25,828 nt of DNA from an uncultured virus (IMG/VR IMGVR_UViG_3300046367_000054). Lineage: Duplodnaviria; Heunggongvirae; Uroviricota; Caudoviricetes; Crassvirales. Position 1 is the stretch's first letter; the number at the start of each line of letters is the position of its first letter. The notes beneath the pieces are model-generated. The model did not search any database, was not told the DNA's origin, and worked only from the letters and a program-made list of their open reading frames with translations. Location of the stretch: IMG/VR virus record IMGVR_UViG_3300046367_000054; one strand, given 5' to 3'. The translations under genes were made by a program, and so were the position numbers. Shown one piece after another: positions 10,611 to 25,828 of the stretch.

Positions 10611-10892
10611 ACTTTCATACAGTTAAGATAGCTTATGCTTTGAATTTTTTTTGTTACGAAAATAGAACTAAAGCTTTTTTTTGAAACTTGTTAGTTATAG
10701 GGAACTAAAGGGCTATATACCTATTTCTGCGGACATACCCCCTAACGGAAAGTCGTTTATATTTGCCCAGCCCCCATACGTTTTTTGGAAAGCGGTAGAA
10801 AGTTTTGGGTTTTTGGTTTGGTTTGTGTGTACGTATCTACAATTACAATAGCGTAGCGCAGCGAAGCGTAGCGTATAGCATACGCGTATAGC

Positions 10893-10934
10893 ATACAGTC
10901 AGGACACGAGGTGATCATGATAATATATGTGTAA
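10893..10934 (+). promoter_or_regulatory. 42-bp repeated upstream element, copy 1
   Basis: ATACA gtcaggac ACGA ggtgatcat GATAATA tatg TGTAA; ATG at 10953. Confidence 0.8.
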
Positions 10935-10952
10935 CAAGTAAATGATAACAAT

Positions 10953-11096
10953 ATGAAACTACAACAACTAATTAACAGATTAATCGATCGCGGATCATTC
11001 GACCTACTATCTGACTCTGAATTCAAATCATTGGATCGCACAGACCAGATGACAGTAAGAAACAAAGTAACATTCACCTTATTACAAGAATCATAA
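10953..11096 (+). CDS. Hypothetical protein (47 aa, MKLQQLINRL...)
   Basis: Follows element copy 1; TAATG coupling to the next gene. Confidence 0.6.
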   Translation: MKLQQLINRLIDRGSFDLLSDSEFKSLDRTDQMTVRNKVTFTLLQES

Positions 11097-11236
11097 TGAA
11101 ACATACTAGATGGTTAGCTTACGAGCTAAAGCTTAACAAGCAGTTGTATGATCTTGGTTTGATTGACCATGTTGAGTACATCGTACGTAAAATGAAACTA
11201 AAAGTAATGAATAAACAACTACAAGAACATGACTAG
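11096..11236 (+). CDS. Hypothetical protein (46 aa, MKHTRWLAYE...)
   Basis: Overlaps the neighbouring genes at both ends. Confidence 0.55.
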   Translation: MKHTRWLAYELKLNKQLYDLGLIDHVEYIVRKMKLKVMNKQLQEHD

Positions 11237-11429
11237 ACTAAGCGACTTACCAAGACACATATACCTTGATCTTATTGAGGAAGCCAGATGGCAACACGGA
11301 TCTGAATTTGTTAACTCTTGTATCGAGATCGATGCGTGTATCTCAGAGCTGTGTAACTGGGCAACTACCAGGCAAGGTTACGATTACTGGTCCTGGATCG
11401 ATAAAGGTTTGTTCGTGCAAATGAATTAA
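11229..11429 (+). CDS. Hypothetical protein (66 aa), TxQGxxYW motif
   Basis: ORF track; shares its C-terminal motif with 14584-14835. Confidence 0.65.
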   Translation: MTRLSDLPRHIYLDLIEEARWQHGSEFVNSCIEIDACISELCNWATTRQGYDYWSWIDKGLFVQMN

Positions 11430-11482
11430 CAACAAGCGGAGCGCGGAGGCGCGCGAAGCGTGTATAGCAACGCGTATAGCAT

Positions 11483-11524
11483 TTACAGTCTGGGTACGAA
11501 TGGTATTTGATAATATATATGTAA
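11483..11524 (+). promoter_or_regulatory. 42-bp element, copy 2
   Basis: TTACA gtctgggt ACGA atggtattt GATAATA tata TGTAA. Confidence 0.8.
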
Positions 11525-11561
11525 GTAACAAAGAATAATAATAATCAAAATAAATAATCAA

Positions 11562-11747
11562 ATGGAAATTACTTTAAAATTCAATCAAAACTTTAAAAAA
11601 GAATTATATCAAAAAATACTTAATTCTAATAAATTAAAATTCACTATAAGATTTTCAAAAGACAAACTTTATATTAATCAACAAGATCTAGAATATATTG
11701 ACAAAGTATTTGATAGAAGTTGTCTAAGATATAAGATATCTAAATAG
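11562..11747 (+). CDS. Hypothetical protein (61 aa)
   Basis: Lies between element copies 2 and 3. Confidence 0.65.
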   Translation: MEITLKFNQNFKKELYQKILNSNKLKFTIRFSKDKLYINQQDLEYIDKVFDRSCLRYKISK

Positions 11748-11749
11748 AC

Positions 11750-11791
11750 TTACAAACCCAACACGAATGGTATTTGATAATATATATGTAA
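11750..11791 (+). promoter_or_regulatory. 42-bp element, copy 3
   Basis: TTACA aacccaac ACGA atggtattt GATAATA tata TGTAA. Confidence 0.8.
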
Positions 11792-11809
11792 CAAGTAAAT
11801 AATTAAATT

Positions 11810-11917
11810 ATGAATAACTTAGAAAAACTACAAGAATTAAGAAAACTTACAAATGATCAAGTGTTATTAGAATATCTCGATGTTTTAATTACAATTGAAT
11901 TAGAATATCAAGAATAA
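11810..11917 (+). CDS. Hypothetical protein (35 aa, MNNLEKLQEL...)
   Basis: Exactly fills the gap between copies 3 and 4. Confidence 0.6.
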   Translation: MNNLEKLQELRKLTNDQVLLEYLDVLITIELEYQE

Positions 11918-11918
11918 C

Positions 11919-11960
11919 TTACAAACTAAATACGAATAGTATTTGATAATAATAATGTAA
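11919..11960 (+). promoter_or_regulatory. 42-bp element, copy 4
   Basis: TTACA aactaaat ACGA atagtattt GATAATA ataa TGTAA. Confidence 0.8.
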
Positions 11961-11991
11961 CAAATAATAAATAACTTTAAAAACAAATATC

Positions 11992-12333
11992 ATGACAAAC
12001 AAAGAATTATTACAACAAGCGATTTCTAAATTAACTAAAGAAGAATTACAAGCAATCTATCCACCAATTGAGCGAGCAAACTTTGTAGTACGCAAGTCTT
12101 GGCTAGGTCGAAATCAAGTAATCACATTCGTCAACAAGAAAAATCAAAAAGTAACTTATAATCACGACGATGTGTTGAATGTTATGCTACCTAAACTAAG
12201 TATCATGCCATGTTGGATCAAACGCGAGTATTGGTCACAATCAACGGATATGCCTAAAGATGTTCGAAATCTTGCAACGTACGAAGATGTGTTGCCAAAT
12301 GTTGAGGAGTTAGTAGCGGGTGTGATTGAATAA
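11992..12333 (+). CDS. Hypothetical protein (113 aa)
   Basis: ORF track; follows copy 4. Confidence 0.75.
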   Translation: MTNKELLQQAISKLTKEELQAIYPPIERANFVVRKSWLGRNQVITFVNKKNQKVTYNHDDVLNVMLPKLSIMPCWIKREYWSQSTDMPKDVRNLATYEDVLPNVEELVAGVIE

Positions 12334-12346
12334 TCACCCGTTGCTA
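12311..12346 (+). terminator. Stem-loop over the gene end (possible terminator or processing site)
   Basis: TAGTAGCGGG-TG-TGATT gaat AATCA-CCCGTTGCTA; no clear U-tract. Confidence 0.4.
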
Positions 12347-12352
12347 TACACC

Positions 12353-12394
12353 CTACAGACCAAATACGATCAAAGATCGATAATATTAATGTAA
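12353..12394 (+). promoter_or_regulatory. 42-bp element, copy 5
   Basis: CTACA gaccaaat ACGA tcaaagatc GATAATA ttaa TGTAA. Confidence 0.8.
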
Positions 12395-12409
12395 CTAAAA
12401 ATAACTAAT

Positions 12410-12670
12410 ATGACTTTCTTAAACAAACCAATTAAAACAAAACAAGACATCAAAAGCTACATTGACAACTTAGTTAAAAACAACATGCTTTATCACTTTG
12501 AAGATGATGCTAAAGACATTCTAAGCTCTAAGTCTGGTTTCACTGAGCCTGCATTCACACCTGAACAGTGCATACTATTAGACGCTAGATCAATCGAAAT
12601 GCTACGAGTTGACTATGGCTACACTTTTGACTATGCATGTCAAGTACTAGAAGAATTAAACATAATATAA
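12410..12670 (+). CDS. Hypothetical protein (86 aa)
   Basis: ORF track; follows copy 5. Confidence 0.75.
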   Translation: MTFLNKPIKTKQDIKSYIDNLVKNNMLYHFEDDAKDILSSKSGFTEPAFTPEQCILLDARSIEMLRVDYGYTFDYACQVLEELNII

Positions 12671-12685
12671 CTAAAAACAACAAAT

Positions 12686-12865
12686 ATGTATCACCATTTA
12701 TCCAAAAGAGAAGTAAAAGAAATGACTAGAGAAGAATTAATTGATGTGCTAATGTGGAATGATCCCAACGGCACGTATAACGACGAAGACTCAATATGCG
12801 AGTTTGGCGAAATAATGACTAGAGAAGAAGCTGAAGCATTAATAATTGGACAATTTGAACTGTAA
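12686..12865 (+). CDS. Hypothetical protein (59 aa, WNDPNGTY motif)
   Basis: MYHHLSKREVKEMTREELIDVLMWNDPNG...; A-rich leader. Confidence 0.65.
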   Translation: MYHHLSKREVKEMTREELIDVLMWNDPNGTYNDEDSICEFGEIMTREEAEALIIGQFEL

Positions 12866-12868
12866 ACT

Positions 12869-13102
12869 ATGAGAAATATGAGAATTGAAGATGTATTAAC
12901 AGGATCTTGTATGGGTCTTGTAATCGGAGTAGTAATCGGTGCGATAGTATTACGTACCAGTACGAATGAACTGCGCGAACTGGAAGCTGATAACAGTCCA
13001 GTGATCATCTGGAATGATGATTCTGAAAGCATACCAGCTGATGGTGAACTAGTACGAATTGAAATGACTCAAAACGATACTATATACATCGGACCTAAGT
13101 AA
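12869..13102 (+). CDS. Putative membrane-anchored protein (77 aa)
   Basis: N-terminal hydrophobic segment MGLVIGVVIGAIVL. Confidence 0.65.
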   Translation: MRNMRIEDVLTGSCMGLVIGVVIGAIVLRTSTNELRELEADNSPVIIWNDDSESIPADGELVRIEMTQNDTIYIGPK

Positions 13103-13109
13103 CAAAAGT

Positions 13110-13153
13110 GTGACAATAGCCTACTACTATATAACTTAATTAGCTAACGTCAC
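13110..13153 (+). repeat. 44-bp quasi-palindromic site, copy B
   Basis: GTGAC AATAGCC TACTACTATATAACTTAATT AGCTAAC GTCAC, flanked by AAAAGT and CTTTTT. Confidence 0.85.
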
Positions 13154-13246
13154 CTTTTTCTACGATCTTAACTTATGCACCGAAACACGGTGTATAGCAT
13201 ACCTATTCTCCATTGCCAAATCTTGGGTAAATAACTCAATAAAAGT

Positions 13247-13290
13247 GCGACAATAGCCCCCTACTATATTACTTAATACCCTAATGTCAC
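13247..13290 (+). repeat. 44-bp quasi-palindromic site, copy C
   Basis: GCGAC AATAGCC CCCTACTATATTACTTAATA CCCTAAT GTCAC, flanked by AAAAGT and CTTTTT. Confidence 0.85.
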
Positions 13291-13352
13291 CTTTTTCCCG
13301 ATCCTCATATTTTATGTTCGATTCTCTCACTTTTTAGGTGCATGTATAGCAT

Positions 13353-13394
13353 TTACAGTCCAAACACGAGATCAATTTGATAATATATATGAAT
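13353..13394 (+). promoter_or_regulatory. 42-bp element, copy 6
   Basis: TTACA gtccaaac ACGA gatcaattt GATAATA tata TGAAT. Confidence 0.8.
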
Positions 13395-13411
13395 CAAATA
13401 ACTAATATACC

Positions 13412-13558
13412 ATGACTTTAGAACTTAACAACGCTCAAATCTCCGCTCTTAAAGAACTTATATGGGATGAAATCGACCGTTTAGGCGGTATTGACCAATT
13501 ATCCGACGAATTAGAGCAAATACTTCAAGATCTTAGAGTTCCTTCAAATGACGAATAG
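13412..13558 (+). CDS. Hypothetical protein (48 aa, MTLELNNAQI...)
   Basis: ATG 17 nt after copy 6. Confidence 0.6.
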   Translation: MTLELNNAQISALKELIWDEIDRLGGIDQLSDELEQILQDLRVPSNDE

Positions 13559-13615
13559 CGAGATAGCGGGTTATACCCTCAATACTTTTTATTCTAGTAA
13601 ACAAAGTATATCCTC

Positions 13616-13657
13616 TTACAAACTAAATACGAGCTCCGTATGATAATATAAATGTAA
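13616..13657 (+). promoter_or_regulatory. 42-bp element, copy 7
   Basis: TTACA aactaaat ACGA gctccgtat GATAATA taaa TGTAA. Confidence 0.8.
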
Positions 13658-13674
13658 CTAATAACAATTATACT

Positions 13675-13878
13675 ATGGATTATGAATTAACCTCTTATAT
13701 TAACCCTAAATGGCCTGAAAGAGTATATTATAAAGCTACTTTCATGAATGAAACGTATCACCATACCGACAAGGCTATTGTCAATACTTGGTTACGTGAG
13801 AAGTTATTGAATAACGAGTATTATATTGAAAAAGACCGTATAAACCAAAAGGCTATCGATGCCTTCTATAAAAAGTAA
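13675..13878 (+). CDS. Hypothetical protein (67 aa)
   Basis: ORF track; follows copy 7. Confidence 0.7.
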   Translation: MDYELTSYINPKWPERVYYKATFMNETYHHTDKAIVNTWLREKLLNNEYYIEKDRINQKAIDAFYKK

Positions 13879-13881
13879 ATT

Positions 13882-14073
13882 ATGAAGAAATTAAATGGAT
13901 TTGAAAGCTTCCTAGCTACACAGGGATTAGAATTATTAAGAGAACAAATGGTGAATGATATTACTACTTATGTACAACAAGGTAAAACACCTTTATTCAC
14001 GACGGGATTCGTTGACGACTCTATCGATGCGTTAATCAAGAAACTTGAAACATTAACCTTAAAACAAAAGTAA
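13882..14073 (+). CDS. Hypothetical protein (63 aa)
   Basis: ORF track; tight packing. Confidence 0.7.
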   Translation: MKKLNGFESFLATQGLELLREQMVNDITTYVQQGKTPLFTTGFVDDSIDALIKKLETLTLKQK

Positions 14074-14074
14074 G

Positions 14075-14254
14075 ATGCAAGAATACAATGTAGAAATTAT
14101 TGAAACATCAAGTAAGTATGTTACCGTTACGGCATCAAGTGCGGATATGGCGGAACGAGTGGTAAGATCAATGTACAACAGCGAAGAAATAGTATTAGAC
14201 TATAGCGACTTCGATAAAGTAGAATTCAATACGGTTAGGGTCTTACAAAGCTAA
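14075..14254 (+). CDS. DpnD/PcfM-like small protein (59 aa)
   Basis: MQEYNVEIIETSSKYVTVTASSADMAERVVRSMYNSEEIVLDYSDF matches the recalled family pattern (Y.V.I.ET....V.V.A....A...V...Y..EEIVLD..DF). Confidence 0.65.
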   Translation: MQEYNVEIIETSSKYVTVTASSADMAERVVRSMYNSEEIVLDYSDFDKVEFNTVRVLQS

Positions 14255-14284
14255 CACGATCACCAAATGATAATATTAATGTAA
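14243..14284 (+). promoter_or_regulatory. 42-bp element, copy 8
   Basis: TTACA aagctaac ACGA tcaccaaat GATAATA ttaa TGTAA; overlaps the upstream stop. Confidence 0.8.
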
Positions 14285-14302
14285 CAAATAAAAATATATA
14301 CT

Positions 14303-14572
14303 ATGAACAAAGTAATAAAATTAACTAAGCTTTATGAATGTAACGACCACGACCGTTATATCTATGTTGAATACACAAATGGCGAAATTACAACATTAAA
14401 TTACCATCAAGGTATTTGCGAAGACTTTGATCCATTCTATGCCGTAAACGACAAAGACTTACTTAACTTCTACAATGCTATACATGACGCGTTGTACCAC
14501 ATGAGCGAAAACGAAATTGATCAATTCAACTACGCAATCGATATGCACTTTGATTACAAAAATAACTTTTAA
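14303..14572 (+). CDS. Hypothetical protein (89 aa)
   Basis: ORF track; follows copy 8. Confidence 0.75.
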   Translation: MNKVIKLTKLYECNDHDRYIYVEYTNGEITTLNYHQGICEDFDPFYAVNDKDLLNFYNAIHDALYHMSENEIDQFNYAIDMHFDYKNNF

Positions 14573-14583
14573 TACATAATATT

Positions 14584-14835
14584 ATGACTAGACAAGAATG
14601 GTTTAACACATTGACACCTGAAGTACAAGAACAATTTAAATTTAACACCAACCAAAACGAAAGCGCATCCGAAGATTCATTCTTTAAATTCTGGATAGAG
14701 CAAGGCTCTAGAGGTATAACATCTGGTATTGGAGGAGCATTCTCTTTCGGTAATACACCACAGGGCTTCCACTATTGGAATGACATTGACAAAGAAGCAG
14801 GACAATTAATTAAATACGACAATAGCCATGAATAA
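14584..14835 (+). CDS. Hypothetical protein (83 aa), TPQGFHYW motif
   Basis: ORF track; motif shared with 11229-11429. Confidence 0.7.
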   Translation: MTRQEWFNTLTPEVQEQFKFNTNQNESASEDSFFKFWIEQGSRGITSGIGGAFSFGNTPQGFHYWNDIDKEAGQLIKYDNSHE

Positions 14836-14920
14836 AATATTTTTAAGAACGGTACTAATAAGATTTTATAAAGAATTACAAGAAGCTGGGAAATCAGCGG
14901 CTTATGCAATGAGACATTAG
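14828..14920 (+). CDS. Possible 30-aa peptide (MNKIFLRTVL...)
   Basis: Overlaps the upstream gene end and fills the gap before copy 9. Confidence 0.4.
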   Translation: MNKIFLRTVLIRFYKELQEAGKSAAYAMRH

Positions 14921-14932
14921 CGATATAAGTAT

Positions 14933-14974
14933 CTACAAGCTAAACACGATACTTAATTGATAATACAATTGTAA
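14933..14974 (+). promoter_or_regulatory. 42-bp element, copy 9
   Basis: CTACA agctaaac ACGA tacttaatt GATAATA caat TGTAA. Confidence 0.8.
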
Positions 14975-14987
14975 TTAACAAATAACA

Positions 14988-15167
14988 ATGAAAGATATTA
15001 AAAAGAAAAAAGACGGAACCTTAGTTGTTAACGGCGTGCTATACACACCTTATAACGTTAGCGATCTACCAATGAGCTTTGGCTTTAAAACTAGCGAAAC
15101 ACGTGTAACACCCGGCTACGACGAATGGTTTAACTATAAAGGCGTAACTTATATAATCAAAAAATAA
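14988..15167 (+). CDS. Hypothetical protein (59 aa, MKDIKKKKDG...)
   Basis: ATG 13 nt after copy 9. Confidence 0.65.
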   Translation: MKDIKKKKDGTLVVNGVLYTPYNVSDLPMSFGFKTSETRVTPGYDEWFNYKGVTYIIKK

Positions 15168-15169
15168 CT

Positions 15170-15319
15170 ATGGAAAAAGCAATACAAGAAACCGAAAAGT
15201 TTGAACAATGGATGAAAACAAGAGTGCAAAGTGTACATTATGCTAACAACGCTAAAATGACTGTAGCTTATGATCGAGTATTCCAAAACAACTTACGTTT
15301 AACTATAAAATCTAAGTAA
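15170..15319 (+). CDS. Hypothetical protein (49 aa, MEKAIQETEK...)
   Basis: Tight packing on both sides. Confidence 0.6.
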   Translation: MEKAIQETEKFEQWMKTRVQSVHYANNAKMTVAYDRVFQNNLRLTIKSK

Positions 15320-15320
15320 T

Positions 15321-15536
15321 ATGAATATAAGCGAGATCAAATACCGTGCTCAATGTAAAGGTTACTCTAAAGTATTATCATTACAAAGCGACTTTCAACG
15401 AGCGGAACGTGACCTAAAGCTAGGCTTAACCGGCGGCGTAAGTATCGAAGAGATTGAAGCAATACGTGATGGCATTGCAACCGAGATTACAGTATGGAAT
15501 TATATATTTAAACTTATAGAAAACGATAACAAATAA
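15321..15536 (+). CDS. Hypothetical protein (71 aa)
   Basis: ORF track. Confidence 0.7.
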   Translation: MNISEIKYRAQCKGYSKVLSLQSDFQRAERDLKLGLTGGVSIEEIEAIRDGIATEITVWNYIFKLIENDNK

Positions 15537-15542
15537 TAAATT

Positions 15543-15830
15543 ATGAAAAGAGTAGTAAAAGCAGCACCAAAATCGGAAGTAATAGAGTTAAATAAAATAA
15601 AGAACGATTCTTATATTGGTATTAAATGGTCTAGCGGTGAAAAAAGTTGGGTTACACAATCAGCAGATAAAGTATTTAAAGGTACTTATATTGGCGACCA
15701 AAATTTAGCGGGATGTTGGACTAGACCGACTAAGCGAGAATATGTTGGAAACGCAATGGAACAAACAGGAACTGAAGTATATGTTTTTGAAGACAAAGAT
15801 GAATTATTAACTTTTTTATTAGAGAAATAA
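15543..15830 (+). CDS. Hypothetical protein (95 aa)
   Basis: ORF track. Confidence 0.75.
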   Translation: MKRVVKAAPKSEVIELNKIKNDSYIGIKWSSGEKSWVTQSADKVFKGTYIGDQNLAGCWTRPTKREYVGNAMEQTGTEVYVFEDKDELLTFLLEK

Positions 15831-15831
15831 T

Positions 15832-16071
15832 ATGATAACAAGTAAAGAACAAACATTACCTAAATGGTTTACCGGTATGCTATACACTGACGGCGGCACA
15901 GTTAGCAATCCGTTCTCTGGCGAAAGCTACGATCTAACCCCCGCTGAGTTATCCATGTACGACTTTATCATGGGTTGTTCAATGACCGGTAGAATGCAGA
16001 ATGAAATGATGAAAGGCTTAACGTGGTTTCGCAAAGCTAACCCTAAAGCATATATGGTATTATTAGACTAA
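15832..16071 (+). CDS. Hypothetical phage protein (79 aa)
   Basis: ORF track; NPFSGE...YD..G...WFR..NP.AY..LLD pattern. Confidence 0.75.
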   Translation: MITSKEQTLPKWFTGMLYTDGGTVSNPFSGESYDLTPAELSMYDFIMGCSMTGRMQNEMMKGLTWFRKANPKAYMVLLD

Positions 16072-16081
16072 AATATAAATT

Positions 16082-16318
16082 ATGGCATCAAATTATAATG
16101 GTTACTCAAATTACGCTACATGGCGTATAAATAATGATATATTAAGTAAATGCGATTTTGCAGAACCTATAGAAGCATTTGAACTCGAAGATATAGTAGC
16201 AACAGTTGTGTTTCGCGAAGATGAAGAGCAACGGATCATGCAAGAATTTGCAGCGGCATTCATAAGCCAAGTTGACTTTGAAGAATTAGCATATACAATT
16301 AATAAAGATTTTGAATAG
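16082..16318 (+). CDS. Hypothetical phage protein (78 aa)
   Basis: ORF track; N-terminal YNGYSNYATW motif. Confidence 0.75.
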   Translation: MASNYNGYSNYATWRINNDILSKCDFAEPIEAFELEDIVATVVFREDEEQRIMQEFAAAFISQVDFEELAYTINKDFE

Positions 16319-16319
16319 C

Positions 16320-16361
16320 TTACAAACCAAACACGACAACACAACGATAATATAAATGTAA
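16320..16361 (+). promoter_or_regulatory. 42-bp element, copy 10
   Basis: TTACA aaccaaac ACGA caacacaac GATAATA taaa TGTAA. Confidence 0.8.
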
Positions 16362-16378
16362 CAAATAAAAAATTATAT

Positions 16379-16654
16379 ATGAAAACAATTAACACTACCC
16401 AACAGTTTAAAGAATTTGTTGGAGACAATGGCAGATTATTCAGCGTAACATTCAGAAAAACTGACGGATCAATTAGAAAAATGGTTGCAAGACTAAATGT
16501 AAAGTCTTACTTAACCGGCGGCGGCGCAAAATATAATGCAGCTGAGCGTAACAATATCGTAGTATTCTCTATGCGAGATAAAGCATACCGTACAATTAAG
16601 ATCGATAACTTATTGAGTATCAAGGCTAATGGTGAATTAATCGAAAACAACTAA
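16379..16654 (+). CDS. SH3/WYL-like beta-barrel phage protein (91 aa)
   Basis: FSVTFRKTDGSIRKM...AYRTI pattern typical of Sm/SH3-like phage proteins. Confidence 0.6.
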   Translation: MKTINTTQQFKEFVGDNGRLFSVTFRKTDGSIRKMVARLNVKSYLTGGGAKYNAAERNNIVVFSMRDKAYRTIKIDNLLSIKANGELIENN

Positions 16655-16664
16655 ATAAAAATAT

Positions 16665-17270
16665 ATGAACTTATTAACTCAAAATTCGAAATTAAAAAAG
16701 ACAAGCAAATTAACAGGTCTACGAGTATTTAATTTTGGCATTCCTGCATACAAAAGCGCGACGGGTAAATTAACCTGCCCGTTCGCTGCAGAATGTGTTA
16801 AGTTTTGTTATGCTCAAAAAGGTGCATACTCTTGGAGTAATGTTAAGCCAGCGTTTGAAAAACGTTATGAGCTAACTAAGACTGACGATTTTGTTAATGA
16901 GATGAACAAAGAAATAGCTAAGAAAAAACCTGATTATGTACGTGTCCACGACAGTGGCGACTACTACTCCAAAGCATATCTTGATAAATGGATCGAGATT
17001 GCTATACACAACCCGCATGTCAGGTTTTATAGCTATACTAACAGTGTTGAAATGCTAAAATCCGTTGATCTACCTGATAACTACGATATTATCTTTAGCG
17101 ACTCTGGCAAACAAAAAGACAAAATTAATACTAAAGTTGATCGTCATACCAGAATTTTTGCTACCTTAGCCGAGATGACATTAGCTGGCTATGTAAACGC
17201 CATGGAAACTGATCTTAATGCAACTAAGTGGTTTAACAAAACAAATAGAGTAGGATTAATTTTTCACTAA
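16665..17270 (+). CDS. Gp88-like (radical-SAM-like Cys motif) protein (201 aa)
   Basis: N.KL.K, TCPFAAECVKFCYA, VRVHDSGDYY and FYSYT motifs. Confidence 0.7.
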   Translation: MNLLTQNSKLKKTSKLTGLRVFNFGIPAYKSATGKLTCPFAAECVKFCYAQKGAYSWSNVKPAFEKRYELTKTDDFVNEMNKEIAKKKPDYVRVHDSGDYYSKAYLDKWIEIAIHNPHVRFYSYTNSVEMLKSVDLPDNYDIIFSDSGKQKDKINTKVDRHTRIFATLAEMTLAGYVNAMETDLNATKWFNKTNRVGLIFH

Positions 17271-17413
17271 TGAGTAGAACAATAAAGCAAAAAAGTAAAG
17301 CGGTAGCTAAATCATGTAAAAATCATGGTGGTTGCCCGTATTGTGAAGGCAATAGATTGTATAAGCATCGTAAAAAATTGCTTGCTTACAAGCCAAACAC
17401 GATTGACAATTGA
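17270..17413 (+). CDS. Small Cys/His putative Zn-binding protein (47 aa)
   Basis: MSRTIK...SCKNHGGCPYCEGNR; TAATG coupling; its 3' end overlaps copy 11. Confidence 0.65.
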   Translation: MSRTIKQKSKAVAKSCKNHGGCPYCEGNRLYKHRKKLLAYKPNTIDN

Positions 17414-17427
17414 TAATATAAATGTAA
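17386..17427 (+). promoter_or_regulatory. 42-bp element, copy 11
   Basis: TTACA agccaaac ACGA ttgacaatt GATAATA taaa TGTAA. Confidence 0.8.
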
Positions 17428-17446
17428 CAAATAAAAAATATAAATT

Positions 17447-17860
17447 ATGAATCCATTAGATCAAATTTTCGAAATTACCCAATTAAGCGTTATAAATTCT
17501 GCATCAAGCATTTTTACTAAAGACGATGTACACAAGTTAATTACTCAACTACAGTCTAACATTAATAAGCATGCAATCGATGAAAGTAAATTACCTCAGC
17601 AACCAATATCAACACCTAATATATTAGCTAGCGACTTTGCTAAATTTACTTCAGCTGTTCGTAACAAATTATCTTATTACTTAGAAAGTTCAGACCTTGT
17701 TGATTATGATTCTGCAGAATTTGAAATTGAATACAACAATCAGCTTGTACTTAATCATGTTAATGTAGATTTTGATCGTTGGACTGAAGAGTTTGATGAA
17801 TATATGCTGGATAACTTTACAGAAGTATTTGGTGACGATAGTATTATTGCTGAACAGTAA
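17447..17860 (+). CDS. Acidic hypothetical protein (137 aa)
   Basis: ORF track; follows copy 11. Confidence 0.75.
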   Translation: MNPLDQIFEITQLSVINSASSIFTKDDVHKLITQLQSNINKHAIDESKLPQQPISTPNILASDFAKFTSAVRNKLSYYLESSDLVDYDSAEFEIEYNNQLVLNHVNVDFDRWTEEFDEYMLDNFTEVFGDDSIIAEQ

Positions 17861-17867
17861 TAATTAA

Positions 17868-17940
17868 GGACTTATAGCTCAGTTGGTAGAGCGGGACACT
17901 CATAATGTCAAGGTCGTAGGTTCGAATCCTACTAGGTCCA
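17868..17940 (+). tRNA. tRNA with CAT anticodon, probably tRNA-Ile2 (lysidine) rather than Met
   Basis: GGACTTA TA GCTC AGTTGGTA GAGC G GGACA CTCATAA TGTCA AGGTC GTAGG TTCGAAT CCTAC TAGGTCC A; the GGAC acceptor and GTAGG T-arm resemble bacterial Ile2 tRNAs; CCA not encoded. Confidence 0.85.
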
Positions 17941-17949
17941 CAAATGGTA

Positions 17950-18295
17950 TAGGCGCACTAACTTCCAATTTCAATAGAACGCAACAAGGTTAAACATTGA
18001 ATACCTTTGTAAATATAGATTGAGCCTAAGAAAAACGTGGCAGATTAAATCGCTATCGCAATTTACATAAAGATACTATCAGTAATGGTAGATGCGTTGT
18101 TCCCTTGAGAAAGGAATAGTAAAGAAGAGTGTCATTACTTGAATTATGTAGAACATAATCGCTCACTACAACACAAATGAGTTCTCAGCAAGTAGTTAGT
18201 AAGAGGCCCTTACATTTAGTATAACTACGTGACCCTAACTCTCTTATACAAGCTCCGTAACTGATAACTCGGTAAGCTATAAGAAAGAGGGTGCT
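17950..18295 (+). ncRNA. Putative structured non-coding RNA(s) between the tRNA genes
   Basis: No ORF in the track; dense hairpins including GNRA tetraloops (see finding). Confidence 0.45.
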
Positions 18296-18300
18296 AATAA

Positions 18301-18371
18301 GATCGAGTGGCGTAATTGGTAAAGCATAGTAGAGATCCTACTACATATAGGTTCGAATCCTATCTCGGTCA
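18301..18371 (+). tRNA. tRNA-like element with non-canonical anticodon loop (pseudo-tRNA or mimic)
   Basis: GATCGAG/CTCGGTC acceptor, TAATTGGTA D-loop, ATAGG TTCGAAT CCTAT T-arm; anticodon arm TAGTA GAGATCC TACTA. Confidence 0.65.
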
Positions 18372-18375
18372 CAAT

Positions 18376-18417
18376 TTACAAAACAAACACGAATAATAAT
18401 TGATAATATTAATATAA
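18376..18417 (+). promoter_or_regulatory. 42-bp element, copy 12
   Basis: TTACA aaacaaac ACGA ataataatt GATAATA ttaa TATAA. Confidence 0.78.
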
Positions 18418-18427
18418 AAAACAAACT

Positions 18428-18868
18428 ATGAATATATTTTATTTAGACAGAGACCCAGTAAAAGCAGCTGAACAGCATTACAATAAGCATGTTGTTAAAA
18501 TGGTCTTAGAAGCAGCCCAATTACTTTGCACAGCGCACCATTTAGCTGGTAATCCAAGCGATGTTCCATACAAAAAAACACACATGAATCATCCATCTGC
18601 CGTATGGGTACGATCATCAGTAGCTAATTATATGTGGTGCTACGAATATATGTTAGCTCTTGGGGCTGAATATACTAAACGTTACGGTAAGCATCATTTA
18701 ACTATTGCAAAGTGTCGTGAGATTCTTTCTAATGTACCGCATGCTATACACGCTGTCGACTTTTGCGATCCACCACAATGTATGCCTGACGAATACAAAA
18801 TGATCGATGCTGTTGATGGTTACAGAAAATATTACGAAATTGGCAAAGCACACTTAAAAGATAAATAA
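18428..18868 (+). CDS. Pyrimidine dimer DNA glycosylase / T4 endonuclease V-like protein (146 aa)
   Basis: MNIFYLD..P..AA....KHVVKM.LE..QLL, THMNHP...W, EY..RYGK.H and PPQCMP motifs. Confidence 0.75.
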   Translation: MNIFYLDRDPVKAAEQHYNKHVVKMVLEAAQLLCTAHHLAGNPSDVPYKKTHMNHPSAVWVRSSVANYMWCYEYMLALGAEYTKRYGKHHLTIAKCREILSNVPHAIHAVDFCDPPQCMPDEYKMIDAVDGYRKYYEIGKAHLKDK

Positions 18869-19328: not shown

Positions 19329-19441
19329 TGAGCAAAGCGAAACAACTTGTTGAACAGTATGCTGAAGAATATCTCGAAGAGAAAATAATTTATGAAACGT
19401 TATACGGCATCGTTGAGTATGAAAAGTGTGACGTAAGCTAA
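19328..19441 (+). CDS. Hypothetical 37-aa protein (MSKAKQLVEQ...)
   Basis: TAATG coupling to the upstream gene. Confidence 0.5.
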   Translation: MSKAKQLVEQYAEEYLEEKIIYETLYGIVEYEKCDVS

Positions 19442-19472
19442 TTAATTAATAATAGTAATAGGCTAATGTCAC
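19428..19472 (-). repeat. 45-bp quasi-palindromic site, copy D (inverted relative to A-C)
   Basis: Reverse complement reads GTGAC ATTAGCC TATTACTATTATTAATTAATT AGCTTAC GTCAC; contains the ATG at 19466. Confidence 0.85.
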
Positions 19473-20089
19473 AGTACGATAGAAAATTAGAACACTTGAA
19501 TAAAAATAGAATAATATATCGGCAAAACCCTATAACAGATAAACCAACACAAAAGTTTGACTGGGGTGACTATTACGAAAACGGCACATTTGAATGTTAC
19601 GATCTATTCAGAAGCAAAGCTAAGATAACCACATACAAATCATTAAAATGGCATTTATATGTTTTATGGTATCTTAATCATCAAATGAATCAAGATCAGT
19701 TTATTGAGGTCGCTAGGTTTATCTGCGATAAAACAAACGGATTTGTTACTTTTAATGTTAGCGAGCAATTATTACAAAGTATGGTTTACGATGTTAGCTT
19801 ACAAGATTTAGAAACCCCTCCACATAATAAGAATCGTAAGATTATATTTAAGGACAATTCTGGGCTTAGTTTAAACGAAAAACTATCTATAGTTGGACAA
19901 ATAGCAGGCAAGAGTAAAATAGTCTCAGATTCGGACATATATGATGCGATGCTATACATGCACGATGCAGATCAAAAGATCACGATTAAAAAGATTGCGG
20001 ATTATTTCCAATGTGCCACAAGAACTATACATCGTAATATGAGTAATGAATTAAAAAAAGAAAAAGAATTACTAAACCAAAGTTTATGA
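19466..20089 (+). CDS. DNA-binding protein with C-terminal HTH (207 aa), possibly Rep-like
   Basis: ITIKKIADYFQCATRTIHRNM helix-turn-helix. Confidence 0.7.
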   Translation: MSQYDRKLEHLNKNRIIYRQNPITDKPTQKFDWGDYYENGTFECYDLFRSKAKITTYKSLKWHLYVLWYLNHQMNQDQFIEVARFICDKTNGFVTFNVSEQLLQSMVYDVSLQDLETPPHNKNRKIIFKDNSGLSLNEKLSIVGQIAGKSKIVSDSDIYDAMLYMHDADQKITIKKIADYFQCATRTIHRNMSNELKKEKELLNQSL

Positions 20090-20773: not shown

Positions 20774-20774
20774 T

Positions 20775-20945: not shown

Positions 20946-20986
20946 TCACATCTCATATTGCAATATGAAATATAAACAATGGAAGC

Positions 20987-21208: not shown

Positions 21209-21210
21209 TT

Positions 21211-21435
21211 ATGAGTAAATTAAAAATAACATTTGAAGATTGGCATTCTACTTGTGGTGATGGTTGCTGCGATTATTACGGAACATATTTATATCTTAAT
21301 GGAGAAAAATTAGAACATCCTAATTCAGACGTATACGATAATAGTTATATAGGAATGGATACTGAGAATTCATTAGAGGCTGTGTTAAAAAAATTAGGTT
21401 ATGAAGTAGAATTTGAATATAAAAACGAATATTAA
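21211..21435 (+). CDS. Hypothetical protein with CGDGCC motif (74 aa)
   Basis: ORF track. Confidence 0.7.
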   Translation: MSKLKITFEDWHSTCGDGCCDYYGTYLYLNGEKLEHPNSDVYDNSYIGMDTENSLEAVLKKLGYEVEFEYKNEY

Positions 21436-21437
21436 TT

Positions 21438-21704
21438 ATGAGTACAAAATTTGGAATACCATTATATCCTGTAGACGATGCAATACTATTAGACGAAGAT
21501 GGAGAATTGCAACCATACATAAGCGAAAACTTTTTCCACGATGTATTTTTTAGAGTATTTAAAAATTCAAGATGGCTTAGTGAATTTGCGAATAGATTAC
21601 CAGATGATACAAAAGTATATGCTTTAACTAATTCGCATCAAGGAATACGTACAATAGCTGACTGTAAAAAAATATTAGAAGATGAAGCCAATACACAAGT
21701 TTAA
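21438..21704 (+). CDS. Hypothetical protein (88 aa)
   Basis: ORF track. Confidence 0.7.
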   Translation: MSTKFGIPLYPVDDAILLDEDGELQPYISENFFHDVFFRVFKNSRWLSEFANRLPDDTKVYALTNSHQGIRTIADCKKILEDEANTQV

Positions 21705-21831
21705 TAATGGAGAAGGCGCAACAATATGCCATAGCTGCCATGGTATAATAAACGTAGGCTGGTCTGACGAAGTTATTTGCAGTAAATGCAAAGGTTATAT
21801 TGAGTCTAAGAAATCAGAGAAAAAAAAGTAA
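21682..21831 (+). CDS. Small Zn-ribbon protein (49 aa)
   Basis: MKPIHKFNNGEGATICHSC...CSKC, two CxxC pairs. Confidence 0.6.
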   Translation: MKPIHKFNNGEGATICHSCHGIINVGWSDEVICSKCKGYIESKKSEKKK

Positions 21832-21840
21832 ACAAAATTG

Positions 21841-21870
21841 TTTGTTTAATTAAAAAAATTGTTATCTTTA
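21841..21870 (+). promoter_or_regulatory. Bacteroidota housekeeping-sigma-type promoter candidate
   Basis: TTTG (21841-21844) N18 TATCTTTA (21863-21870), one mismatch to TAnnTTTG; lies upstream of the trx-sigma operon. Confidence 0.5.
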
Positions 21871-21909
21871 CGAATCTAATAATAACTAAATTAATTTTAA
21901 ACAAACAAT

Positions 21910-22164
21910 ATGAAGAAAGTAATAAGATTTACCGCAAGCTGGTGCGGTCCTTGTAAAGTGTATGCAACTACATTTAAAGACGTACAAGAACAAGTTAAAA
22001 ATGCTGAATTTGAAACAGTAGATGTTGATACTGAAAACAAATTAATAGCAGAACACGGAGTTAGAAACGTTCCTACGACAGTATTGATTAAAGAAGATGG
22101 TTCCATTAAGAAGCAATCTGGTAGAATGAGCGAGAAACAACTATTAGACTTTATAAATAGTTAA
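21910..22164 (+). CDS. trxA: Thioredoxin
   Basis: WCGPC active site and VP cis-proline motif. Confidence 0.9.
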   Translation: MKKVIRFTASWCGPCKVYATTFKDVQEQVKNAEFETVDVDTENKLIAEHGVRNVPTTVLIKEDGSIKKQSGRMSEKQLLDFINS

Positions 22165-22165
22165 T

Positions 22166-22924
22166 ATGAAAAGCTATAATCTAGATAATTACTTACGTTA
22201 TAAAGACGACGTAAAGGAAATCAACGAGCGAATAGAAATAAAAGCTTATCACGAATTAACAAGAGACGAGTTGATAGCAAAGTTTTTACCTTTAGTTGAA
22301 AATCTAGCTAGGAAGTTTTCTACAAGCGATCAAGCTTCTGGTGTTATGGATATAACTGATATGATACAAGAAGGATCTATTGGTTTAATACAAGCAGTTG
22401 ATAATATCACGTGGGCTACAATACTTGAATCTGACGAGCCATTACAAACTCTTAAGTCATTCTTATCTAAAAGAATAAAAGGGGCGATACGAAGAGCGAT
22501 TGATATTAATAGAGGCGCAATAAAGCTTCCAGAACATAAGTTGGCAGAGATAAGACGCAATCCTGATGATGATAAAATGGTTGCTTTGTTTTTCAATAGC
22601 ATATTCTTTAGCATCGATGATAACGATGACGATGAGGAAGAGAATCCTATCTATCAGATAGAAGATAAAAGTAAGAAGTATAATATAAATTTATTGAATA
22701 CTTATTTGCTTAGCTTAATGAAGCAACACTTATCACAAAGACAATACGATGTACTGCGCTTGTCATACGGATTAGATACAGATAAGAAGTCGGCTAAAGA
22801 GATTGCACAATACATTAATGTAACAGTACCAACGGCAAATGTTATTGTATCACAAATTAAAAAAGAAGCAATAGATACTTTAATATCTAATGTTGATAGA
22901 GATCAAGTTATTGATTATCTTTAA
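22166..22924 (+). CDS. Sigma70-family RNA polymerase sigma factor (252 aa)
   Basis: Region 2 LPLVENLARKF...DMIQEGSIGLIQAVD...RIKGAIRRAI; region 4 LSQRQYDVLRLSYGL...KEIA. Confidence 0.9.
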   Translation: MKSYNLDNYLRYKDDVKEINERIEIKAYHELTRDELIAKFLPLVENLARKFSTSDQASGVMDITDMIQEGSIGLIQAVDNITWATILESDEPLQTLKSFLSKRIKGAIRRAIDINRGAIKLPEHKLAEIRRNPDDDKMVALFFNSIFFSIDDNDDDEEENPIYQIEDKSKKYNINLLNTYLLSLMKQHLSQRQYDVLRLSYGLDTDKKSAKEIAQYINVTVPTANVIVSQIKKEAIDTLISNVDRDQVIDYL

Positions 22925-22950
22925 ATAGTAAACAATTAAATTAAATATCC

Positions 22951-23505
22951 ATGAAAAATGAGACAATGTCCTTGAATGAAAAGTTAGCAGTCATTCAAAC
23001 AGAATTTAAAGCTAAAAAATCTAGATTCAATTCTTTTGGTAAGTACAACTTTAGGTCAGCAGAAGACATTCTAGAAGCAACAAAACCATTTTTATTAAGA
23101 TTAGGAGTATCAGTAACAGTGACAGAAGAATTAGTTGACAGTAAGTTTTTAGAATTTCCAATGTTGAAATCAACCGCTACTATATCTGACAACCTCAATG
23201 CTATACATGCTACAGCAATTGTTGGAGTAGATCTTGATCAAAAAGGTATGCAAATGCCACAGAAGTTTGGTTCAGCATCTAGTTATGGTAAGAAGTATGC
23301 TTTAGGTAATCTATTCTTGATTGATGATACTCAAGATCCTGATCACGGTAAAGCAGATCCAAAACCAAAGGTTAAGATTGAAGTAGGTACAGATACTTTT
23401 GATAAAGCTAAAGCTTACGTTAAAGATCAGACAACATTAGATACTATTTTAAATAAGTACGATGTAGATCCAAAAGCGATTGAAGAACTTAAAAAATTAA
23501 TCTAA
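22951..23505 (+). CDS. ERF-family single-strand annealing protein
   Basis: KLAVIQTE.KA.K...N.FG.Y.FRSAEDIL and Q.FGSASSY.KKYAL..LF.IDD.QDPD motifs. Confidence 0.85.
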   Translation: MKNETMSLNEKLAVIQTEFKAKKSRFNSFGKYNFRSAEDILEATKPFLLRLGVSVTVTEELVDSKFLEFPMLKSTATISDNLNAIHATAIVGVDLDQKGMQMPQKFGSASSYGKKYALGNLFLIDDTQDPDHGKADPKPKVKIEVGTDTFDKAKAYVKDQTTLDTILNKYDVDPKAIEELKKLI

Positions 23506-24236
23506 TGACTAAAGAAGAAATCTTAGAGAAGTTAAGAGATGACCAACATTATTACGGTGAATTTGGAAAACAATTTCTTAGCAACTCTAATATAAGTTCA
23601 TTGCTAACTAATCCGTTAGAGATGAATGCACCTCAGCCGCCGAATCCAAATTTTGCAATTGGTGGTTATTTTCACACTGCAATATTGGAACCCGATAAGC
23701 TACATAAATACAAGATAATTAACACAACGACTCGTAACACTAACGTTTACAAGGAGTTATCTGGCGGTGAGATTTGTTTATTACAACACGAAGTTGATAA
23801 TATCGAACTACTGAAAGATAAAATGTTAGCTAACAAAGTATGTGAAGGTCTTATAAGAGGTTTCAATGTTGAGTATGAAGTTCCTGGAATTGTTGATATC
23901 AACAGTGTAATGTGGAAAGGTAAGGCGGATATTATAAACCACGACGAAGGTTTGATAGTCGATCTTAAAACAACATCAGATCTATCAGGGTTTGCTTATT
24001 CTGCAAAGAAATATAATTATGATAGTCAAGCATACATTTATAAAAAGTTGTTTGGTTACGATTTAATTTTCATTGCAATAGATAAAAAGTCGCATCAAAT
24101 TGGTATCTTTGACTGTTCTGATAAGTTTTTACAAGGCGGTGAAGATAAAGTATTAAAAGCTGTTGATGCATACAATTTATTTTTTAAGACTGAAGACTTT
24201 GATCCTCAACAACATTTATTAACTAAAACATTATAA
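23505..24236 (+). CDS. PD-(D/E)XK exonuclease (RecE/ExoVIII C-terminal-like)
   Basis: LSNS, G..FH..ILEP, KGKAD, IVDLKTT and Y.YD.QAY.Y motifs; coupled to ERF. Confidence 0.85.
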   Translation: MTKEEILEKLRDDQHYYGEFGKQFLSNSNISSLLTNPLEMNAPQPPNPNFAIGGYFHTAILEPDKLHKYKIINTTTRNTNVYKELSGGEICLLQHEVDNIELLKDKMLANKVCEGLIRGFNVEYEVPGIVDINSVMWKGKADIINHDEGLIVDLKTTSDLSGFAYSAKKYNYDSQAYIYKKLFGYDLIFIAIDKKSHQIGIFDCSDKFLQGGEDKVLKAVDAYNLFFKTEDFDPQQHLLTKTL

Positions 24237-24251
24237 TTAAATTAAATAAAC

Positions 24252-24443
24252 ATGAGTAACAAGAGAAACACAAAAGAAACTGTTGCAGCAAGAGTTTGTA
24301 CAGTATCAGGTTTAACAAGACCAGAAACAGAGTTCTACAAAGGACAAAACCATTTAAAAGCTATTGATAACTTAAGAAGAAATTCAGGGGCTAGTAAAGA
24401 TCAAATTAGAAGAATGTTTAACAACCTACAATTAAATAACTAG
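24252..24443 (+). CDS. Hypothetical protein (63 aa)
   Basis: ORF track. Confidence 0.65.
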   Translation: MSNKRNTKETVAARVCTVSGLTRPETEFYKGQNHLKAIDNLRRNSGASKDQIRRMFNNLQLNN

Positions 24444-24508
24444 TATGTAAATGTAATATTCAATTAATTTGCGTAATTATAAAAGCATAACGATATAACA
24501 AATATATT

Positions 24509-25051
24509 ATGACTGAACAAGAACGCAAAGAAAAAAGAAGATTGTATATGAAAGAATATGCTGCTTCTTATAATAAAAAGTATTATTTAGAAAATAAAAA
24601 TAATATTAAAATATTACAAAAAGAATATTACAATAATAACAAAGAAAAAATAAGAGCACAACAAAATGAGTATTCAAAATTATATTGTAAAAATAATAGA
24701 AATAAATTAAATGAATACTCTAGAAATAGACGCCAACAAGATCCAATTCATAAAATGAAAAATATATTAAGAACAAGAATATATTATTTTTTAAAATCTA
24801 AAAGTTTTATTAAAAACAAAAAAACCGAAGATATAATAGGATGTTGTTATGATGATTTCAAAAAACATATTGAGGAATTGTTTGATGAAAATATGAATTG
24901 GGACAATCACGGCGAGTGGCATATAGATCATATAATACCATTAGATTCAGCTATTACTGATTGTGATATATTAAAACTTTGTAATTATAAAAATTTACAA
25001 CCATTGTGGGCAAAAGAAAATTTAAAAAAATCTAATAAAATTATTAATTAA
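24509..25051 (+). CDS. HNH-type (putative homing) endonuclease (180 aa)
   Basis: MNWDNHGEWHIDHIIP...NYKNLQPLW..ENLKK; N-terminal YY..NK repeats; visibly more AT-rich than its neighbours. Confidence 0.8.
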   Translation: MTEQERKEKRRLYMKEYAASYNKKYYLENKNNIKILQKEYYNNNKEKIRAQQNEYSKLYCKNNRNKLNEYSRNRRQQDPIHKMKNILRTRIYYFLKSKSFIKNKKTEDIIGCCYDDFKKHIEELFDENMNWDNHGEWHIDHIIPLDSAITDCDILKLCNYKNLQPLWAKENLKKSNKIIN

Positions 25052-25063
25052 AAACTAAAAAAA

Positions 25064-25378
25064 ATGGCTTCTATAATTAAAACGAGTATCAACTTAAATG
25101 ATATTCCAAAAGACAAAATCATTAATGGTAAAAAAGGAAAGTATTTACCAATCACAATTACAATCAATGATGAGGTTGACCAGTTTGGTAACCAAGGTCC
25201 TGTAATGGTTGAACAAACGAAAGAAGAACGCGATGCTAAAGTAGCTAAGGTTTATCTTGGAAATGTTAAGGTTGTATGGACTAACGGTACAAATGTTGGA
25301 GCTGCACCAAGACAAGATGCAGGAGCGCCAGCGCCACAACAAGCACCAGTAATGGTTGAAGATGATCTACCATTTTAA
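25064..25378 (+). CDS. Putative single-stranded DNA-binding protein (104 aa)
   Basis: Acidic DDLPF tail after a Pro/Ala/Gln linker; replication module context. Confidence 0.7.
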   Translation: MASIIKTSINLNDIPKDKIINGKKGKYLPITITINDEVDQFGNQGPVMVEQTKEERDAKVAKVYLGNVKVVWTNGTNVGAAPRQDAGAPAPQQAPVMVEDDLPF

Positions 25379-25425
25379 GGTTATAGCCTTAAAATAAAAT
25401 AAAAATTTAAGGTTATAGCCTTAAA
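25374..25425. repeat. Two identical 20-bp near-palindromes TTTAAGGTTATAGCCTTAAA
   Basis: Copies at 25374-25393 and 25406-25425. Confidence 0.85.
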
Positions 25426-25542
25426 AAAATTGTATTATTTATGATGCGTTATAATATTTTTTATATCTTAGCGCATCATATTTAGTGCAAAACAAGCTAA
25501 AATGTCCATAATATAAGACATTAACAAATTAAATTTTTTCCT

Positions 25543-25828
25543 ATGAATGTAGAGACAGTTGAAATTAACGGGTTTTTAATTGATGAATTCAATCAATATA
25601 AACTTGAAGAGGGTAAGACGCAAGGTATATGCCCTATATGTTCACCCGATAGAAAACCAAAGAATGAAAAAGCCAAATGCGCTAGCTATGATTGGCAACG
25701 CGGTATAGGAACCTGCCACAATTGTAATAAAACATTTCAACTACACACTTACCAACGCAAAGGTAAATCTGAAAAAGTATATGAGAAACCTGAACCGGTT
25801 GCTATACACGAAGTCAGTTCTAAAGTTG
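25543..25828 (+). CDS. Primase(-helicase) N-terminal Zn-binding domain, truncated by the window
   Basis: MNVETVEING...CPICS...KC...GTCHNC; follows SSB. Confidence 0.65.
   Translation, partial: MNVETVEINGFLIDEFNQYKLEEGKTQGICPICSPDRKPKNEKAKCASYDWQRGIGTCHNCNKTFQLHTYQRKGKSEKVYEKPEPVAIHEVSSKV

Follow-up and report, generated by a model that had tools for sequence, protein, structure and literature searches.

TGCTATACRY, a word that most likely marks site-specific nicks in the early region of a clade of podophage-like viruses

Site-specific nicks in phage DNA have been known for about 50 years and their purpose is unknown (PMC11780129). The accounts found concern phages of Escherichia coli and Pseudomonas, and in them the nicks always lie on one strand. 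In T5 and BF23 the interruptions are found at R/GCGCRGG, with the genes sciA and sciB, and the nick word of the phiKMV-like phages is CGACN5CCTACTCCGG (PMC3517423; PMC10644984; 10.1101/619015). The T5 and phiKMV sites occupy one strand only, and the T5 nicking genes map to the late region (PMC3517423). Phage tf carries 14 nicks at TACT/RTGMC, made after the fourth base on one strand, 11 of them within the genome's left half, and their purpose is likewise unknown (PMC3517423). Rembedalsseter, a LUZ24-like phage, has 13 nicks at WACTRTGAC, a word conserved in 61 phages and placed mostly on the coding strand (PMC11780129). The present analysis concerns the 10-mer TGCTATACRY, which occurs 15 times in a stretch of 25,828 nucleotides (nt) from an uncultured virus (IMG/VR record IMGVR_UViG_3300046367_000054; the window, at its full length, in what follows). 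The positions at which assembled contigs end suggest that it is most likely a site-specific nick, TGCT^ATACRY.

The resemblance to tf and Rembedalsseter is close. In all three cases the word is asymmetric, 9-10 bp long and conserved across the phage group, with the same T-R-C-T start and a break, here a proposed one, after the fourth base; each genome has about 9-14 sites, dense in one part and mostly on the coding strand. The differences lie in the word itself, in an unrelated host phylum, in the use of both strands, in tandem pairs or triples behind promoters and in an even spacing of about 1.2 kb; furthermore, the tf and Rembedalsseter nicks were shown on virion DNA, whereas the present ones are read from contig ends. 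With T5 and phiKMV, lytic tailed phages too, the present system shares site-specific interruptions of unknown purpose, whereas those phages use one strand, few major sites and other sequences. Sites on both strands depart from the one-strand feature of the T5, phiKMV and tf nicks and set the present system apart as a variant. No paper on TGCTATACRY or on nicks in Bacteroidota phages was found in a searched literature that is thin in subscription journals, and the word 'nick' is absent from the accessible text of the Flavobacteriia podophage paper (PMC8776804).

The original prediction had listed 15 copies with their strands, all carrying the RY extension and none lying in the first 10.8 kb, and each of these points was confirmed. 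Its assumed GC content of about 30% was measured as 34%. In 100 dinucleotide shuffles the mean number of matches was 0.36 and the maximum 2, and the core TGCTATAC is the top-enriched 8-mer of the window (15 against 1.33). One-mismatch copies of the motif were not found in the window. The copies are the following.

10871..10880, minus strand, motif copy of tandem pair 1, predicted cut between 10877 and 10876
10884..10893, minus strand, motif copy of tandem pair 1, abutting the first putative early promoter
11460..11469, minus strand, motif copy of tandem pair 2
11472..11481, minus strand, motif copy of tandem pair 2, directly upstream of a putative promoter
12342..12351, plus strand, intergenic motif copy upstream of a putative promoter, X9 contig end at 12353
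13190..13199, minus strand, motif copy between two inverted-repeat B/C elements
13342..13351, minus strand, motif copy directly upstream of a putative promoter
14476..14485, plus strand, motif copy in gene 14303-14572, A-I-H frame, X8 contig end at 14489
15037..15046, plus strand, motif copy in gene 14988-15167, V-L-Y frame, codon 17, kept in many relatives
15878..15887, plus strand, motif copy in gene 15832-16071, M-L-Y frame, without a contig end on its 3' side
17000..17009, plus strand, motif copy in a GP88-family gene, X2 contigs abutting at 17010/17011 with zero overlap
18742..18751, plus strand, motif copy in gene 18428-18868, L319 starting exactly at 18746 and X5 at 18749
19950..19959, plus strand, motif copy in the gene of a 207-amino-acid HTH protein, codon 162, conserved in 14 listed relatives
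23199..23208, plus strand, motif copy in an Erf-like gene, contig ends at 23206 (X9), 23210 (X8) and 23211 (X5, X6)
25800..25809, plus strand, motif copy in the primase-helicase gene

The eight coding copies use two frames, A-I-H in five genes and M/V-L-Y in three, as had been claimed and as the coordinates of the open reading frames (ORFs) bear out. When codons were shuffled synonymously in the motif-bearing segment, the nine sense copies in called ORFs compared with a mean of 0.77 (maximum 3 in 100 shuffles); seven of the nine lie in genes with homologs and the other two under doubtful ORFs. In nine complete or near-complete relatives the same shuffle gave 0.4-1.1 copies against 5-14 observed. 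The excess thus goes beyond codon expectation, and the claim of selection on the DNA holds.

The evidence that carries the nick reading comes from contig ends. Contigs of eight public freshwater runs containing this phage (X handles) were aligned to the window, the longest 32 of 301 and 171 pieces being taken. Of the run-contig ends listed, nine in 61 fell within 16 nt 3' of the fourth base of a plus copy, with 0.52 expected, and four further runs contributed five in 60 (0.6 expected); seven of the nine plus copies have such ends, 4-16 nt 3' of the bond. At copy 15037..15046 a contig of X1 ends at 15056 and another restarts at 15048, X4 starts at 15050, and the relative L082/L264 ends inside its counterpart of this copy; at copy 19950..19959 X4 ends at 19963 and restarts at 19959. 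Abutting contigs overlap by 9 nt (15056/15048), 5 nt (19963/19959) or 0 nt (17010/17011), and ordinary assembly forks overlap by 27-30 nt. The contig of the window itself stops 19 bases beyond copy 25800..25809, 25 nt past the bond, and the L038 contig starts exactly at a tandem copy of the homologous type (compare the window copy 11460..11469).

Contigs of the family from other assemblies fix the position to the base. Among their 259 distinct ends, ATACAC is the commonest first 6-mer, with six occurrences against 0.46 expected for ATACRY (P=9e-6), and TGCT directly precedes four of the six in close relatives. A later, independent contig set gave two ATACRY starts in 50 ends (0.085 expected, P=0.003), both with TGCT in relatives, so that in the pooled data ATACRY begins eight of 309 ends, with 0.55 expected. 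A relative runs past 193 of the 309 ends; six of these lie at offset 0 of TGCT^ATACRY, and no other offset collects more than two. Promoter-box and B/C words used as controls drew no pile-up of ends. The six exact starts are divided equally between the early coding strand and the opposite strand, and two of the three on the opposite strand lie just behind promoters. The motif thus marks the bond at which assembled DNA of this clade repeatedly begins, with an exact 5' end after TGCT. Ends on the other side of the bond are ragged (-3, -1, +3, +3, +4, +7, +19, +24, +25 and onward to +54). One exact and one ragged side fit a nick; a cut through both strands would be expected to leave two fixed sides, and starts at a single base inside a 10-mer argue against forks in the assembly graph. 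With three exact starts on each strand, cutting of both strands is likely.

The word is a property of a whole clade of podophage-like genomes, 60-68 kb long and akin to Flavobacterium phages, whose host probably belongs to the Bacteroidota. Conservation in relatives had been proposed as a check, and the motif is kept across the clade: all 35 records picked by a 113-amino-acid early protein (35 of 41 loci were taken, independently of the motif) contain it, with 335 matches against seven for the reversed control. Of 80 viral loci selected through the 207-amino-acid protein, 78 have it too, and so, at lower density, do 71 of the 79 loci from a subgroup that is more divergent. Its tandem form is found in at least 135 viral stretches. 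Of 486 distinct TGCTATAC contexts, 459 continue with RY, and 307 of these with AC. The only clearly raised one-base variant is TGTTATACRY (55 against 631 for the core), which is commoner in the divergent subgroup with fewer exact copies (L399-L478, L594-L672). About 5,500 metagenome stretches were estimated for one marker gene, in a scan of the best 80 of 480 matches that disfavours contigs broken inside that gene.

A sister group is at background level, with 0-2 copies in each of 22 longer records and nine in total against nine for the control. These records were chosen from 80 loci picked by the terminase of the other genome in G000, the 87.8 kb record to which the window belongs and in which two related phage genomes turned out to be joined near the tail-fibre gene. 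The join is revealed by a pair of GroEL genes, a pair of early arms and a 124-bp exact repeat, and it unites a genome of about 65 kb with one motif copy and about 22.5 kb of a motif-bearing relative; a whole-genome motif test on this chimera is invalid, and complete relatives were taken instead.

3359..3482, exact repeat of the first 124 contig bases, the join lying there or left of there

In a terminase tree of 17 rows the motif-bearing genomes form one side of a branch supported at 99/99; the motif-bearing and motif-less sets were picked by different queries, which makes the clade boundary approximate. Judged by terminase, Flavobacterium Elemovirus (46%) and podophages of Cellulophaga, Maribacter and Tenacibaculum (32-42%) come closest among cultured phages. 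Only terminase and GroEL searches reach the Elemovirus and Cellulophaga phages, and searches by sigma factor, early-region DNA or exonuclease returned no cultured close relatives. The Flavobacteriia podophages of Elemovirus, Pachyviridae and Pervagoviridae, with terminases 32-46% identical, share the late-gene order and GroEL/GroES, whereas in elemoA_7-9A the motif is not enriched and the clade-specific genes are missing. No clear alternative nick word emerged from the motif-less relatives. One of them, L584 (MW202828.1, 43745-55170), carries 14 copies of the perfect palindrome GTGTCGTTAACGACAC, an operator-like word, through its early arm.

The layout of the sites is also conserved. Six of the first seven copies in the window are on the minus strand and the following eight are all on the plus strand, exactly as the original prediction had counted. 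In ten genomes aligned on the 113-amino-acid gene, the region left of that gene holds 31 minus and 3 plus copies, the first 2.5 kb to its right 19 plus and 16 minus, and the stretch from 2.5 to 20 kb 69 plus against 4 minus, with nine copies in total beyond 20 kb. The predicted polarity therefore stands across relatives but the clean switch does not, for all ten genomes carry copies on both strands and mix the orientations within 2.5 kb of the region of that gene. Nor does the GC skew turn at 13.4 kb, where the switch had been placed; it turns at about 10.5-11 kb, with gene direction. Dense sites are confined to the early third, the late 40 kb or so of the genomes having 0-3 copies, and density is highest beside a conserved non-coding word between the two arms and falls with distance from it. 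Spacing between plus copies is even: its median is 1.17 kb, and its coefficient of variation is 0.34 against 0.79 for random placement, a value reached in none of 5,000 simulations. This spacing is kept although the sites shift between genes and frames. In conserved genes 68 of 74 copies are sense, that is, on the non-template strand, and six are antisense. Outside genes the motif accompanies promoter-like sites, 109 of 323 of which are preceded by a copy at most 100 bp upstream (antisense in 70 cases, sense in 39).

The likely course of events may be pictured as follows. A site-specific nickase encoded by the phage would act on mature genomes and cut the strand that carries the motif. It would do so late, at the time of packaging or afterwards, which is the timing reported for T5, phiKMV and tf. 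During library making the nick would shear to a double-strand break; end repair would keep the 5' end exact, and the other side would be ragged where shearing broke the opposite strand, as standard library chemistry implies. Inside genes the nicks would fall on the non-template strand, and elsewhere they would sit behind promoters, a placement with which early transcription and ejection could proceed despite the nicks. Tandem sites 11-14 nt apart may release short oligomers and leave small gaps.

As to purpose, the place of the sites in the genome offers some guidance. A word between the late and early arms, common to 22 of 110 relatives, lies in a region that is a possible genome end made by the terminase, judging from sequence; a fixed genome end was sought and only this conserved word emerged.

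10767..10774, plus strand, the inter-arm word CCAGCCCC

Contig depth over about 10.7-15.5 kb is roughly twice that of the flanks in four of the eight runs (X1, X2, X3, X8), and the rise is weak in X4 and unclear in X5. The doubling is a weak hint of a terminal repeat of 4-5 kb, to which co-occurring relatives could add depth. The motif-dense end of doubled depth near the inter-arm word is taken as the end that enters the cell first. If the sites are nicks, their most likely purpose, held with slightly less than even confidence, is to serve packing and transcription-coupled entry as swivels and hinges, located where the genome would be the last to be packed and the first to enter. The chief alternative purpose is nick-primed replication or recombination. 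The original prediction had spoken of a directional DNA signal: selection at the DNA level and conservation bear this out, a physical strand end was not foreseen, and its guess of a role in DNA entry is still a possible purpose. In the fullest version a dedicated nickase would write a clade-wide nick map on both strands, cutting the non-template strand about every 1.2 kb inside early genes and the template strand at tandem sites directly behind the first promoters, with paired nicks that release oligomers of 11-14 nt and open single-stranded gaps; the map would be a mechanical device for RNA polymerase pulling the genome out of the capsid, and nick maps of uncultured phages would be readable from contig ends alone. 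This version looks unlikely when all its parts are taken together.

Candidates for the enzyme and for site-binding factors come from gene content. Searches with tblastn found, among others, the 113-amino-acid protein, the 207-amino-acid protein, the sigma factor, a 146-amino-acid protein (18428) and an 82-amino-acid late protein in nine of nine motif-bearing and none of eight motif-less genomes.

9299..9547, minus strand, 82-amino-acid basic late protein, candidate nickase
11992..12333, plus strand, 113-amino-acid protein, most conserved early gene, only in motif-bearing genomes
19466..20089, plus strand, 207-amino-acid protein with a C-terminal HTH, nearly restricted to motif-bearing genomes

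In the HNH (beta-beta-alpha-Me) pattern the first strand of a beta-beta-alpha unit carries D-H and the helix carries N. In the 82-amino-acid protein D47, H50, N61 and R62 are invariant in 47 sequences, and its model contains a beta-beta-alpha unit (E47-49, E54-56, H58-62; predicted local distance difference test, pLDDT, 80.6), in keeping with the HNH pattern. On sequence and model, this HNH-like protein is the first nickase candidate; it is encoded late, as are the nicking genes of T5. It had no match in 50,697 phage records or in a comparison with an annotated HNH, and no nickase shared with the known nicked phages was found. The 113-amino-acid protein is a candidate site-binding or protecting factor; it has no Pfam, PHROG or Atlas match and no fold match (best Z 3.0), and its model is weak (pLDDT 64). 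The 207-amino-acid protein, with weak HTH matches only, is a second candidate site-binding factor.

Several observations weigh against a nick at TGCTATACRY or against parts of the scheme built on it. Most copies are bridged by contigs of the same runs, and one X1 contig (10480-15056) spans eight of them. Five public-run contig starts sit 3-9 nt downstream of the bond, a shift for which nick translation or trimming is a guess, and the starts of L327 and L346 are not tied to the full motif. None of the 121 listed run ends lies 3' of the six minus copies of the window genome, and the cutting of minus copies is drawn from three relatives. The eight runs may belong to one campaign. The spacing statistic compares genomes that are kin; codons alone predict a sense bias of about 5:1 in genes, and the observed value is above this and not far from it; and the adjacency to promoters may only mirror the placement of non-coding space. 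For the 82-amino-acid protein, fold matches are weak (best E 0.13, with an HNH-annotated BFVD protein at E 1.3), searches of PDB sequences, Pfam and Foldseek-PDB gave no match, and motif-less relatives have distant homologs by profile search, so that it may be a general terminase helper.

Among other explanations, the one that survives best, with a small probability, is that the motif is a signal for starting or priming replication and that nascent strands begin at the fixed 5' ends. The 207-amino-acid HTH protein, nearly clade-specific, or the primase-helicase would start strands at ATACRY by a primer, or by a transient nick priming strand displacement that leads away from a zone at 13.4-14.4 kb. 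New strands would then begin with A, the spacing of about 1.2 kb resembles Okazaki lengths, the copies mostly point away from one zone, and a scan of conserved genes identified neither a DNA polymerase nor a ligase. However, such a signal is expected over the whole lagging-strand template, and the sites are dense in about one third of the genome, with the remaining 40 kb or so almost empty; at 100x depth nascent ends would probably not be frequent enough to interrupt assemblies; and the skew follows gene direction and not the supposed zone.

Somewhat less probable is a labile modification, an abasic site, a covalently bound protein or a staggered double-strand cut by a terminase or nuclease, breaking during extraction. 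The X2 contigs that abut without overlap at high depth and the 3-9 nt shift of the public-run starts would fit it. A double-strand cutter would hardly be exact on one side and ragged on the other, and no motif-linked modification gene is found among the clade-specific genes. The chance is marginally lower again that the motif amounts to no more than a binding site or a recombination hot spot and the ends are forks from mosaic strains or shared conserved words. The family is highly mosaic and the motif often stands beside promoter-like sites, but the overlaps of 27-30 nt expected of forks contrast with the 0-9 nt observed, the starts fall on a fixed base inside the 10-mer in six different contexts, and other conserved words show no pile-up.

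Chi, KOPS and Ter are short polarised words inside genes, and the present motif resembles them in all three respects. The original prediction had likened the motif to such signals, and phage mimicry of a host Chi-, KOPS- or Ter-like word would suit a polarity around one zone. It is now largely refuted and barely credible: TGCTATACAC has 504 matches in 121 genomes, about one per Mb and like the reversed control, these genomes being those of the class of a Bacteroidetes bin, from which the true host may differ. Unlike Chi, KOPS and Ter, the motif shows no enrichment within the host class, is confined to the early region of the phage genome and marks a strand end, and as a host Chi/KOPS/AIMS word it lacks both host enrichment and a genome-wide spread with one polarity per arm. 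Two of the 121 genomes are exceptions. The excess in G006 stems from binned phage contigs, and G114 has 24 copies of TGCTATACAC against two for the control, perhaps from binned phage contigs as well. The tandem form occurs in 104 scattered stretches of unrelated genomes among 185,579 prokaryote genomes. One contig, L186 (CACOBR010000001.1; 150 kb, labelled Alphaproteobacteria), has two tandem motif pairs about 1.9 kb apart and no phage promoter. Resemblances to loxP and to relaxase nic sites were treated as coincidence.

If the nick reading is true, site-specific nicks extend to a widespread aquatic clade of Bacteroidota phages. Their use of both strands, their even spacing despite moving sites and the tandem sites behind promoters are features that constrain the purpose, and the sister group without the word offers a natural control. 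Fixed contig starts inside an enriched word would be a cheap means of detecting nicked phages, and the fragmentation of these genomes in assemblies would be accounted for.

The surroundings of the sites are those of a phage genome. Late genes including GroEL occupy the minus strand up to about 10.4 kb and are followed by an early arm of small genes, a sigma factor (22166-22924), Erf, exonuclease and primase-helicase. The motif clade thus encodes its own sigma factor, and the early arm contains twelve promoter-like repeats of rigid spacing, four of which have the motif directly upstream.

10894..18434, plus strand, twelve putative early promoters, TACA..ACGA..N10..GATAAT, starting at 10894, 11484, 11751, 11920, 12354, 13354, 13617, 14244, 14934, 16321, 17387 and 18377
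13101..13297, two inverted-repeat B/C elements, GTGACA...TGTCAC (13101-13160 and 13238-13297)
10558-10617 and 19416-19475, further B/C copies
17868-17941, tRNA-Met gene
18301-18372, tRNA-Ile gene

A tRNA-like stretch was seen by eye on the minus strand at about 10450-10525, where ARAGORN made no call. Minus-strand motif copies adjoin two of the B/C elements. GC-rich short repeats of the GCGGAGCGCG type precede the tandem copies, at 10849-10870 and 11436-11459 in the window and also in many relatives.

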